Below, one piece after another: positions 1,236 through 5,630 of a stretch of 38,281 nucleotides of DNA. The DNA is from a virus: the UHGV virus genome UHGV-0173928. One strand, 5' to 3'. The translations under genes were made by a program, and so were the position numbers. Positions within the stretch are counted from its first letter, which is position 1, and the number at the start of each line of letters is the position of its first letter. The notes under the pieces were generated by a model. It did not search any database and was not told where the DNA came from. It saw nothing but the letters and a program-made list of their open reading frames with translations.

Positions 1236-2540
1236 CTATATAAACTTAGATATAATATCGTGAATCTGTTGTAGCGGGATTTCTTCCATCTTACTCTTAA
1301 TAAGAGAGCGGTTAGATGCTGTCAGTGAAGGCCATTTTGTTTTCCAGGCTAGATATGCTCGCCATGAGTAGCCTGTTTCGTAAGGTTTATTCATATAAGT
1401 CATTGAGTGTTCAACCGCATGTATGTATTTTTTCTCAAAGTTGGTTCCTTTTACTTCAAATAAACTACCGAAATAAATAAGCCATTTTGCCAGGTGTTCA
1501 TACTGCTCCCATGCGCCAGACTCTTTAGTAAGATCTATTTTTTTATCTATTATATCACAAAAAACATTTAATACCTTTTCATCATTCCAGCTATATCCAG
1601 ATGATGAAATGGAGGAAATGATATGATAAAAAGAATCCTCTAACTTCAAGAACTCTATTTTATACTCTCTTCCGTTTTTTATTACCGATTTGATTGAGTG
1701 CCTCAATTTGTCTTTTATTTTTTTTGCTTCTGGAATTTTCTTGTTAAGTTTTCTAAAGAAATCAGACACCTCTGTTTTATCTATAACCCTAATCCCAAAG
1801 CAGGAAAAATAGTAATCTTTAATAGGTTGCAATAGTTTCCCTCGGGAAATAAGGAAAATATTGGAGGACATTACGTTGTCCCGTGAAAATACCTTATATT
1901 CATTTATAATCGCCTTGAGGTTCGCGTCACTTAGAGAATAGCCAAGAATAACAATAGTGTTTTCATGTAGAACTGTGCTTAGTTTATTTGAAAAGTAAGA
2001 ATTACCATTTATAAATCTGAAATAATCCTCGCTAGTAACAACCATATCTGATGGGGAGTCTATAGAGCCGTGAACATGGTAGACTTTAACCTCACAATTA
2101 TATTTTGGAATTGGCAGGCCGGGGGTGATTGTACACGTTCGATTCTCTCCAGCCAGTTTTTCTGCTAACTTGTCATAATTTGTCGTAATTACTTTAAATG
2201 TGTTTTCTTTGAAAAAGTCTTGAATATATTCAATTGATGGATCAAGTTCGATTGAGGCTATGATTTTCTCAATCTCCTGGTAAATATTTTTCCCCGAAAG
2301 TATAAATTTTAGTGCAATAACCTGAGCAGCCTCTTCAAGGCTAAGGTCTTTTGCTTTTCCATCAGGAAATAATTCCTCTTTGAGTGAGTCACCATCCTTC
2401 AATAAACCGCACAGTTGCTCCAATAAAGATTGCCAACTTGGGGCTTTATCATCAGAAACAGCCTTTGAAAATCCAGTGCCTGTAAGAAAGCACAGCCTAT
2501 GTGTAGCTGCTGCATAGGCAATTTCTATATACTCGCTCAT
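1236..2540 (-). CDS. SIR2-family (SIR2_2/DUF4020-type) putative NAD+-consuming defense protein with unassigned C-terminal domain
   Basis: N-terminal region carries the Rossmann G-x-G motif (CFLTGTGFS), TTNYD and VYHVHGS motifs and a GYSLSD motif, the hallmark set of defense-type SIR2 domains such as ThsA/DSR; gene is visibly AT-rich relative to its flanks. Confidence 0.8.
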   Translation of the reverse strand: MSEYIEIAYAAATHRLCFLTGTGFSKAVSDDKAPSWQSLLEQLCGLLKDGDSLKEELFPDGKAKDLSLEEAAQVIALKFILSGKNIYQEIEKIIASIELDPSIEYIQDFFKENTFKVITTNYDKLAEKLAGENRTCTITPGLPIPKYNCEVKVYHVHGSIDSPSDMVVTSEDYFRFINGNSYFSNKLSTVLHENTIVILGYSLSDANLKAIINEYKVFSRDNVMSSNIFLISRGKLLQPIKDYYFSCFGIRVIDKTEVSDFFRKLNKKIPEAKKIKDKLRHSIKSVIKNGREYKIEFLKLEDSFYHIISSISSSGYSWNDEKVLNVFCDIIDKKIDLTKESGAWEQYEHLAKWLIYFGSLFEVKGTNFEKKYIHAVEHSMTYMNKPYETGYSWRAYLAWKTKWPSLTASNRSLIKSKMEEIPLQQIHDIISKFI

Positions 2541-3238: not shown

Positions 3239-3427
3239 AGCGCCCCCTACAAAAAAGAAAAGCCACCAGCGGCGGCTTAGCAATACAACTGAAGGTAGCG
3301 CCCGGTACTCAGACTGTGCCGTCCATGGAATATTTGAAAAGGGATCCATCCGTACCGGGCATGTGATGATTCTGACTGAAGTCACTTGTCAGTTGTCAAT
3401 TATTTCAGATTAAAAATAATATATTTA

Positions 3428-3988
3428 TTAGTGCATGATGTTTGCCATCTCATAGGCGTCAGCCAGCAACTCCATCTCTGACTTGTTCAGCAAGGTGAAT
3501 TCTTTCTTGCCTCCAACCACACCATCGGCATGAACAGGGACCAGCCAGGGGTATTTTTCTCTTACTTCAGCCGGTGCTGCATGCTGGTGGTGCCATCTAC
3601 AAAGGGGCAATTGCTTTTTGTGACAACCCGGCGCGGTACGACCGGAGATATGGTGCAGAGATACCTCTTCAGATATTACTCCATGCATGTAGCAGGCAAT
3701 GCAGGGGAGAGCGCCAAGAGCATTGGCGATGCTCCGTTCCTCCGCTGTCGATGTTCGCCCCTTCAAGCCACGAGATTTTATCTTTACCGCACTTTTCCGC
3801 GTTTTGCTGGCTGGTGGGCGCTCTTTCTGTTTAGCGATACGGCGGACGATAGAATCCCGCATTTTCTGATATTGCGATTCTCGCCAGGCGGGGTCAGCCA
3901 ACTTTTCCCGTTGCCGAGCGATCGCTCGTTCTCTGGCTGCCTTCTGCCACTCGCGGCGCTGTTCAAGTTTTTGTTCGATTGTTTTCAT
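3428..3988 (-). CDS. ref: Ref, HNH-type recombination enhancement function
   Basis: 186 aa matching my recollection of P1 Ref in length and sequence, with Cys/His-rich HNH-like core (CIACY...CHKK...CRWHH) and basic N-terminus; located beside cre as in P1. Confidence 0.85.
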   Translation of the reverse strand: MKTIEQKLEQRREWQKAARERAIARQREKLADPAWRESQYQKMRDSIVRRIAKQKERPPASKTRKSAVKIKSRGLKGRTSTAEERSIANALGALPCIACYMHGVISEEVSLHHISGRTAPGCHKKQLPLCRWHHQHAAPAEVREKYPWLVPVHADGVVGGKKEFTLLNKSEMELLADAYEMANIMH

Positions 3989-3993
3989 ATGGC

Positions 3994-4021
3994 AAAAAAA
4001 AAAGGCGGCCTAATGGCCGCC
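3994..4021 (-). terminator. intrinsic-terminator-like hairpin plus U-tract immediately upstream of the ref start codon
   Basis: On the minus strand ggcggcc-atta-ggccgcc is followed by ten U; the U-tract ends 6 nt before the ref ATG. Confidence 0.45.
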
Positions 4022-4088
4022 AATGATGTCAAGGAGTTAAGTAATGGCAACGTCTTCGTAGTTGACAAAAACTGCGGCTTAATTATAG

Positions 4089-4105
4089 CAATCAATTAGA
4101 GCAAT
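4089..4105. promoter_or_regulatory. C1-operator-like 17-mer upstream of ref
   Basis: caatcaattagagcaat matches the reverse complement of the P1 C1 operator consensus ATTGCTCTAATAAATTT at 14/17 positions. Confidence 0.5.
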
Positions 4106-4236
4106 GGTAGATATTTTGTTAATCGCGAATCACATTTTTTCACTTCAGTACCTGTGTGCTATACTCCTTCTTGATTGATTGGATGCGGAATACAAACCCG
4201 CTCTTTTGTGCAGCCTGGCTCCTTGCCAGGCTTTTT

Positions 4237-4548
4237 TTATTTCATCATGGAAGCTGTTAACGCTTTGGATCTTGCTGAACTGATTGAAAGGGCATTGTTT
4301 ACCTTACCCAGGAGTTCGCCAAATTCCACCATCACTCTAGTAAGCCCGCGCCGCGCTTCCTCCTCCGTTGCATTCATCACAAAATGTTCAGCACTCCGCA
4401 TGCTTTTAACGGGGAACGCAACAGATATCGAGTCGATATCAGGCATCCTATCGCTCAACTTTACGGTGACAATGACAGATGGTGACTGAATTTGAGAGCT
4501 TACAGACAGCACCACATATTTTCCGTCTATTTTGAAATCCTTCCGCAT
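4237..4548 (-). CDS. hypothetical protein (position of P1 cra, cre-associated)
   Basis: 103-aa ORF between cre and ref; a C1-operator-like site (4565-4581) lies just upstream; identity by position only. Confidence 0.4.
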   Translation of the reverse strand: MRKDFKIDGKYVVLSVSSQIQSPSVIVTVKLSDRMPDIDSISVAFPVKSMRSAEHFVMNATEEEARRGLTRVMVEFGELLGKVNNALSISSARSKALTASMMK

Positions 4549-4598
4549 GCGTCACCATAAATATCAAATAATTAGAGCAATCAAGCGCAAATGAACGG

Positions 4599-5630
4599 CT
4601 AATCGCCATCTTCCAGCAGGCGCACCATTGCCCCCGTTTCACTATCCAGGTTACGGATATAGTTCATGACAATATTTACGTTGGTCCAGCCACCAGCTTG
4701 CATGATCTCCGGTATTGAAACTCCGGCGCGGGCCATATCTCGCGCGGCTCCGACACGGGCACTGTGTCCAGACCAGGCCAGGTATCTCTGACCAGAGTCA
4801 TCCTTAGCGCCGTAAATCAATCGATGAGTTGCTTCAAAAATCCCTTCCAGGGCGCGAGTTGATAGCTGGCTGGTGGCAGATGGCGCGGCAACACCATTTT
4901 TTCTGACACGGCAAAACAAGTAGTTATTCGGATCATCAGCCACACCAGAGACAGAAATCCATCGCTCAACCAGTTTAGTTACCCCCAGGCTAAGTGCCTT
5001 CTCTACACCAGCGGTGCTAACCAGCGTTTTCGTTCTGCCAATATGGATTAACATTCTCCCACCGTCAGTACGTGAGATATCTTTAACCCTGATCCTGGCA
5101 ATTTCTGCTATACGTAGCAGGGTATTATAAGCAATCCCAAGAAATGCCAGATTACGTATATCCTGGCAGCGATCGCTATTTTCCATGAGTGAACGAACCT
5201 GGTCGAAATCAGTGCGTTCGAACGCCAGTGCCTGTTTTGCACGTTCACCGGCATCAACGTTTTCTTTTCGGATCCGTCGCATGACCAGTGAAACAGCATT
5301 ACTGTCACTTGGTCGTGGCAGCCCGGACCGACGATGAAGCATGTTTAGCTGGCCCAAATGTTGCTGGATAGTTTTTACTGCCAGACCGCGCGCCTGAAGA
5401 TATAGAAGATAATCGCGAACATCTTCAGGTTCTGCGGGAAACCATTTCCGGTTATTCAACTTGCACCATGCCGCCCACGATCGGCAAACGGACAGAAGCA
5501 TTTTCCAGGTATGCTCAGAAAACGCCTGGCGATCCCTGAACATGTCCATCAGGTTCTTGCGAACCTCATCACTCGTTGCATCGACCGGTAATGCAGGCAA
5601 ATTTTGGTGTACGGTCAGTAAATTGGACAT
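4599..5630 (-). CDS. cre: Cre site-specific tyrosine recombinase
   Basis: 343-aa protein recognisable as P1 Cre (MSNLLTVHQNLPALPVDATSDEVRKNLMDMFRDRQAFSEHTWKMLLSVCRSWAAWCKLNNRKWFPAEPEDVRDYL...), with loxP about 420 bp upstream. Confidence 0.98.
   Translation of the reverse strand: MSNLLTVHQNLPALPVDATSDEVRKNLMDMFRDRQAFSEHTWKMLLSVCRSWAAWCKLNNRKWFPAEPEDVRDYLLYLQARGLAVKTIQQHLGQLNMLHRRSGLPRPSDSNAVSLVMRRIRKENVDAGERAKQALAFERTDFDQVRSLMENSDRCQDIRNLAFLGIAYNTLLRIAEIARIRVKDISRTDGGRMLIHIGRTKTLVSTAGVEKALSLGVTKLVERWISVSGVADDPNNYLFCRVRKNGVAAPSATSQLSTRALEGIFEATHRLIYGAKDDSGQRYLAWSGHSARVGAARDMARAGVSIPEIMQAGGWTNVNIVMNYIRNLDSETGAMVRLLEDGD

Follow-up and report, generated by a model that had tools for sequence, protein, structure and literature searches.

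A terminator-like hairpin in the ref leader of a P1-like phage, a probable attenuator downstream of a C1 operator

Introduction

What does a terminator-like hairpin do when it stands directly before a start codon? The question is raised by ref in the virus genome UHGV-0173928, of which a stretch of 38,281 nucleotides, here called the window, was analyzed. On the minus strand, a G+C-rich hairpin and a run of T residues end just short of the ref ATG, and an operator-like sequence for the C1 repressor lies further upstream. An earlier note on this DNA had suggested either an attenuator or some other read-through control, or translation of a leaderless kind.

Ref expression harms the host, lowers lysogenization and increases killing by ciprofloxacin (Ronayne et al. 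2016, PMC4713147), and it is thus likely that the dose of Ref is of consequence to the phage. The gene is induced in the lytic cycle, its presence lowers lysogenization 40-fold, and its 5' region is a target of both C1 and H-NS (Ronayne et al. 2016, PMC4713147), observations that make the tight control of Ref proposed in the earlier note plausible. A terminator in the ref leader is, moreover, already known: to judge from the title of the report, which names “attenuator-antiterminator control” of P1 ref, attenuator control of this gene was described in 1988 (Windle, Laufer and Hays, J Bacteriol 170:4881-4889, 1988; PMID 3170487 / PMC211533). Here we describe the element in the window, its conservation, and the readings that it allows.

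Materials and Methods

The P1-like comparison set consisted of 82 loci drawn from IMG/VR, GTDB and the P1 record, plus the window. Counts of variable positions were taken from an alignment of 60 distinct P1-like sequences.

Results

Setting of ref in the window

The window comes from a Punavirus, either a phage or a plasmid-prophage of the P1-like kind. Across positions 3400..4650, it shares 99.7% identity with phage JL22, 99.2% with RCS47 and 93% with reference P1. Four genes, all on the minus strand, set the context:

5630..4599, minus strand: cre
4237..4548, minus strand: c8 (cra), upstream of ref and on the same strand
3428..3988, minus strand: ref, coding for a RecA-dependent HNH nuclease of 186 aa
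3385..2597 as listed, minus strand: mat

The ref product matches Pfam PF16786 (E = 1e-49) and aligns with the crystallized Ref protein (PDB 3PLW) over residues 1-186; neither Ref nor C8 had a match in NCBIfam. Just downstream of mat, a 434-aa open reading frame (1236..2540, minus strand) carries a SIR2-like domain (PF13289, E = 2e-23) in a place where reference P1 presumably carries the res/mod restriction genes. If that placement is correct, the window may hold different cargo here, possibly a defense gene.

A strong, directional hairpin before the ref start codon

The element and its surroundings read as follows:

4004..4021, minus strand: predicted terminator hairpin GGCGGCC-ATTA-GGCCGCC (sequence reading, consensus scan, RNA fold)
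4021..4015, minus strand: 5' arm, GGCGGCC
4014..4011, minus strand: hairpin loop, ATTA
4010..4004, minus strand: 3' arm, GGCCGCC
4003..3994, minus strand: T10 tract, the uninterrupted U-tract of the predicted terminator
3993..3989, minus strand: spacer GCCAT, which holds no Shine-Dalgarno motif
3988..3986, minus strand: ref ATG

The hairpin and 10-nt U-tract reported in the earlier note are thus present, with the last T at position -6, and the note was also right that a conventional Shine-Dalgarno sequence is missing, as no purine-rich motif occurs between hairpin and ATG, either here or in the P1 lineage. The consensus scan returned seven pairs (7/7 G-C), a 4-nt loop and T10, that is, a G+C-rich stem within the range of about 5-14 bp, a short loop and a U-tract directly 3' of the stem, on the ref-sense strand, as in intrinsic terminators. 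Folded as RNA, the hairpin with its tail reaches -16.2 kcal/mol (z = -4.3 relative to shuffles). It is the strongest of the approximately 66 distinct terminator-like sites within the 38-kb window, and the only one among them that combines an all-G-C 7-bp stem with an uninterrupted T-run of at least 8. Read on the opposite strand, the stem is preceded by A10 and is followed by no T-run, indicating that the element is directional and oriented in the ref sense. The fold of the full leader is dominated by the terminator, which is retained in every suboptimal structure within 6 kcal/mol. A chance hairpin was also considered, and is ruled out by the rank of this site in the window together with its conservation (described below). 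In the P1 record, AF234172, no terminator is annotated at this hairpin.

A C1-controlled promoter and its leader

Upstream of the hairpin, the following features were assigned:

4089..4105, minus strand: C1 repressor operator Oref (ATTGCTCTAATTGATTG), by consensus match and by annotation of P1 AF234172
4082..4110, minus strand: promoter P2ref, with -35 CTACCA at 4110..4105 and -10 TATAAT at 4087..4082, transferred by alignment from the AF234172 annotation
4047..4075, minus strand: leader hairpin 1, GCAGUUUUUGU, loop CAACU, ACGAAGAC..GC, from the minimum-free-energy fold and the RNAalifold consensus, with weak covariation
4045..4051, minus strand: GUUGCCA, a candidate antiterminator strand that pairs with UGGCGGC (4022..4016) and is also the -35 of the predicted P1ref
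4028..4036, minus strand: CU-rich motif CTCCTTGAC, common to the JK004 lineage (as CCTCCCTGAC) and single-stranded in the predicted fold
4023..4050, minus strand: predicted sigma-70 promoter P1ref, with TTGCCA, a 16-nt spacer, CATCAT, and TG before the -10, from a consensus scan and termed “predicted” in AF234172

The operator sequence ATTGCTCTAATTGATTG matches the consensus ATTGCTCTAATAAATTT, an asymmetric 17-bp site, at 14 of 17 positions, and is identical to the “monovalent C1 controlled operator Oref” annotated in P1 AF234172; the window as a whole contains ten matches to the C1-operator consensus, relative to 0.19 expected by chance. Oref is 84 nt upstream with respect to the hairpin and 117 nt with respect to the ref ATG, so that the “about 100 bp” of the earlier note was a fair description. 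In the P1 annotation, Oref occupies the space between the two P2ref hexamers (-35 and -10) and overlaps the edges of both; the TATAAT of P2ref is unvaried in the 60 distinct P1-like sequences. A transcript from P2ref is predicted, from the position of this -10, to start near 4075 and to carry a leader of approximately 85 nt that ends with the terminator. The hairpin (4021..4004) therefore has the position of an attenuator, between the P2ref -10 (4087..4082) and the ref ATG (3988), with the start site itself placed from the -10. Transcript-mapping data for P1 were sought, and nothing usable was found.

Several other signals lie nearby. A 17-mer resembling a C1 operator, ATTGCTCTAATTATTTG, is found just upstream of c8 (4565..4581, minus strand); reference P1 has ATTGCTATAATTATTTG at this site, where its record annotates only the promoter Pc8 and no operator, and the window version, ATTGCTCTAATTATTTG, is nearer to the operator consensus than is ATTGCTATAATTATTTG. 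An H-NS core site, CGATAAA, was described upstream of P1 ref (Ronayne et al. 2016, PMC4713147); in the window, the minus strand at 4119..4125 reads CGATTAA, one base off that core. Finally, the CU-rich motif just before the terminator (CTCCTTGAC in the window, CCTCCCTGAC in the JK004 lineage) is, besides the operator and promoter, the sole stretch of the leader common to both lineages, and it resembles an anti-Shine-Dalgarno sequence.

Conservation within the P1 lineage

The stem is kept, essentially fixed, in the 82 P1-like loci. Among the 60 distinct sequences, none of the seven positions of the 5' arm varies, and two of the seven in the 3' arm do, both by C-to-T changes that leave a G-U pair or else make the T-run longer. 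By comparison, the loop is variable at three of its four positions (ATTA, ATCA or TAAA), and 84 of 100 positions vary in the intergenic region upstream of the operator. The P1-like loci have runs of 7-10 T, most often 8, with 10 occurring in the window and one other locus, and the spacer before the ref start is GCCAT, GACCAT or ACCTT. Judged from this alignment, the stem is under purifying selection, while loop, T-run length and flanks vary. RNAalifold recovered both the terminator and the 5' leader hairpin with a negligible covariation term; covariation within the P1 lineage is uninformative, because the stem hardly varies. The length of the T-run also shifts an open frame in the leader, which is in frame with ref in P1 (T8) and overlaps it as ATGA in the window (T10).

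A second lineage with a different stem

A second lineage, consisting of Cronobacter phage JK004 and Salmonella plasmids of the pCVMN1543 type, encodes Ref proteins of 64-65% identity (65% for JK004). Upstream of JK004 ref are a C1-type operator close to the consensus (ATTGCTCTAATAATTAT), TATAAT, a leader of approximately 60 nt, a hairpin, T8, 13 nt and the ATG. The stem-loop is GACGGTC-TTCG-GACCGTC, with the T8 following directly, and the same layout was found in three IMG/VR relatives and in the Salmonella plasmids pCVMN1543 and p21-SA00706-0. After the T-run, this lineage has GGG or GGAG, a weak or a normal ribosome-binding site. The records examined for these ref loci hold no regulatory annotation. 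When a third lineage was sought among plasmids, only the pCVMN1543 type was found.

Between the two lineages, two of the seven stem pairs differ at both bases (G-C is replaced by A-U, and C-G by U-A), and one of the five further loci with the JK004 layout has an A-to-G change that leaves a U-G pair in place. When both lineages are taken together, 100% of the stem cells pair, and slid registers pair far worse; in a shuffle control on the between-lineage covariation, 23 to 98 of 500 shuffles reached the observed values. This single between-lineage comparison lends modest support to the view that the structure of the stem is kept when its sequence changes.

More distant ref genes are arranged differently. 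Those of the D6 type (50-56% identity) and the Vibrio ref have an ordinary ribosome-binding site and no hairpin adjoining the start codon, and the Alteromonas ref has no hairpin either; in the Klebsiella record, only a truncated ref is annotated, and its upstream region is uninformative. As the hairpin occurs in the C1-operator lineages and is absent from D6-type, Vibrio and Alteromonas ref, the leader terminator accompanies C1-operator control of ref.

The region between c8 and ref

A scan and fold of the window revealed no sense-strand intrinsic terminator between c8 and the ref hairpin. Just past the c8 stop, in the region 4212..4240 of the plus strand, a hairpin at 4232..4212 (AGCCTGGC-loop-GCCAGGCT, -15.7 kcal/mol) has a T7 run on the plus strand only, and this structure is thus terminator-like for transcripts antisense to c8 and cre, and not for c8. 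It follows that, going downstream from cre and c8, the first intrinsic terminator on the sense strand is the ref hairpin. Approximately 50 nt upstream of the post-c8 hairpin, at 4137..4165 on the plus strand, is a promoter-like site (TTTTCA-17-TATACT, with TG), from which a short antisense RNA is conceivable; Rfam matches at this plus-strand site were below threshold only.

Discussion

A probable default-off attenuator

We propose that the ref leader hairpin is probably a Rho-independent terminator that serves as a default-off attenuator of ref. One reading in the earlier note was that the hairpin attenuates the C1-controlled gene or otherwise controls read-through into it, and this reading gains support from the conservation of the stem and from the second lineage with its different stem. 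When C1 leaves Oref, RNA polymerase would start at P2ref (near 4075), transcribe the leader of approximately 85 nt, and then meet the 7-bp all-G-C hairpin and U10, which end 5 nt before the AUG. Most transcripts would end at the hairpin, and only the fraction that is read through would carry ref, which would keep the toxic RecA-dependent nuclease at a low dose even after derepression. Upon induction, ref mRNA reaches levels that fall in the range spanned by other genes under C1 control (Ronayne et al. 2016, PMC4713147), indicating that termination, if it takes place as proposed, cannot be complete.

Because no sense-strand terminator follows c8, the ref hairpin should also stop cre-c8 transcripts, and in lysogens it would probably insulate ref from them. 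As to the mRNA that is read through, the region around its AUG (U10 GCCAU AUG AAAACAAUCGAACAAAAAC) is A/U-rich and unstructured, a context that permits weak initiation independent of a Shine-Dalgarno sequence. Translation would rely on this region, and its probable inefficiency would be a further brake. Termination itself, its efficiency, the insulation from cre-c8 and the mode of translation are all predicted here from sequence.

Possible regulated antitermination

A leader terminator might also be under regulation, with an upstream segment of the leader pairing with the 5' arm and blocking termination under some signal. We regard this as possible, though tentative. The best candidate in the window is GUUGCCA (4051..4045), which pairs with UGGCGGC (4022..4016) in folds of the leader while it is still being transcribed, prior to synthesis of the 3' arm, and in the JK004 lineage ACUGUCA could pair with UGACGGU. 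The corresponding AACTGTC is invariant in that lineage, although its leaders are otherwise very divergent, and the duplex is matched by only 1-4% of shuffles (9% for one locus, L088). That, from one lineage to the other, the partner segment differs along with the stem is suggestive, and the 1988 title does name an antiterminator. The unit is kept in two lineages with different stems, and in each of them an upstream stretch is complementary to the 5' arm; the unit may therefore be an antitermination switch.

The shuffle comparison, however, is less favorable in the P1 lineage, where 8-9% of shuffles do as well as the candidate duplex (-10.5 kcal/mol). In the P1 sublineages L039/L058 and L054, the pairing is weakened without compensation, to -7.4 and -5.8 kcal/mol, respectively, values no better than those of shuffles. 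Moreover, the long-range helix is far weaker than the terminator (-15 to -16 kcal/mol), no terminator-free structure falls within 6 kcal/mol of the optimum, no conserved leader peptide is available to drive a switch, and there is no known trigger.

A possible internal promoter behind an insulator

Alternatively, the hairpin might mainly end the cre-c8 and P2ref transcripts, with productive ref mRNA coming from the predicted P1ref; we find this doubtful. The -10 of P1ref abuts the hairpin, and its expected start, at approximately 4017..4015, lies inside it (in the 5' arm or the loop). With a start inside the 5' arm, the terminator could not form in P1ref transcripts, and for that reason the statement in the earlier note that any transcript entering ref must pass the hairpin is not safe, given that AF234172 predicts a P1ref (4050..4023) whose transcripts would carry little of the 5' arm and would escape termination. 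[quoted passage not shown] 2016, PMC4713147). Conversely, it agrees with the consensus at only 9 of 12 positions and is a prediction rather than a mapped start, and retention of its letters proves little, as conservation is high over the entire leader. In the JK004 lineage, there is no -10-like hexamer at the place of P1ref, yet the hairpin is kept. Further, a constitutive P1ref would conflict with the C1-dependent expression of ref (Ronayne et al. 2016, PMC4713147).

A possible small RNA

The unit from P2ref to the terminator might instead produce a C1-controlled small RNA of approximately 80 nt that acts in trans, with ref expression as a by-product of read-through, a proposal that we consider distinctly unlikely. 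The layout resembles that of Hfq-type small RNAs, with a 5' stem-loop, a single-stranded CU-rich segment (CUCCUUGAC) and a terminator with a long U tail; the CU-rich motif is common to both lineages, and with so strong a terminator most transcription from P2ref would be expected to yield the short RNA. Against this, no family in Rfam 15 reached its gathering score (the matches, to small RNAs, were all below threshold and driven by the terminator, the best of them at 24.2 bits relative to a threshold of 41), no target was identified, and the unit is invariably found immediately before ref, in the position of a leader. For the joint proposal that the ref leader is either a factor- or condition-dependent antitermination switch or the source of a C1-controlled small RNA of about 80 nt with a CU-rich seed, we likewise put the chances low.

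Unlikely readings: leader translation and leaderless mRNA

That a leader frame running through the hairpin delivers ribosomes to the ref AUG, or that Ref starts further upstream, is very improbable: while a frame open from TTG 4095 ends in the window at a TGA that overlaps the ref ATG (as ATGA), and the same frame in reference P1 (T8) is in frame with ref, the relation shifts with the lengths of the T-run and spacer, such that the two are in frame in 51 of the 82 loci and in the remainder the leader frame stops at ATGA, 7 or 34 nt upstream, or 23 nt downstream. In addition, this frame has only TTG starts, with no Shine-Dalgarno motif seen before any of them, TTG 4095 is upstream of the P2ref start, and the crystallized Ref is the 186-aa product. 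A search of the 82 loci for a leader peptide of the trp/pyrBI type found no conserved open reading frame. Leader peptide, translational coupling and N-terminal extension were all rejected, as the frame relation varies across the 82 loci.

Leaderless-like translation, the other suggestion of the earlier note, was unsupported, since the nearest promoter-like -10, itself a prediction, ends at 4023, 35 nt before the ATG. A leaderless mRNA was rejected, the consensus scan having found no promoter-like site placed to start at 3988.

Significance

A default-off attenuator of this kind would help to explain how a P1-like phage could hold ref quiet in lysogens and modest after induction, and its presence should be kept in mind in practice by anyone who uses the native upstream region to express ref. 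What we add is small: (i) a second lineage with a compensated stem, (ii) the finding that no leader peptide is conserved, and (iii) a T-run polymorphism that alters the leader frame.

Comparison with known systems

The closest known system is the leader attenuator of P1 ref, which shares with the window the gene, the operator (Oref/P2ref) and the letters of the hairpin. Reference P1 reads GGCGGCCATTAGGCCGCC, followed by T8 and GCCAT ATG, and the window differs from it in having T10 rather than T8 and in a few leader substitutions. From the title of the 1988 report and the position of the hairpin, we infer that the “attenuator” named there is the hairpin described here. An earlier deposit of the P1 ref leader, GenBank M23246, which we take to come from the same study, covers P1 1808..2063 and, after coordinate conversion, ends at the last base of the 3' arm.

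The ref leaders of the JK004/pCVMN1543 type have the same order of elements (C1-type operator, TATAAT, leader, 7-bp hairpin with T8, start codon), but differ from the window in their stem and loop, in the GGG/GGAG that follows the T-run, and in a longer spacer to the start codon (10-13 nt). In Rfam 15, no family covers the ref leader element at gathering score. Relative to the classical leader attenuators (trp, pyrBI, ampC), the ref leader is distinct in that a conserved, translatable leader peptide and a known metabolic signal are both missing, and in that its terminator ends 5 nt before the AUG, with no Shine-Dalgarno sequence between. It resembles them in its plan: in these systems, likewise, an intrinsic terminator stands between the promoter and the first structural codon and by default lowers expression.
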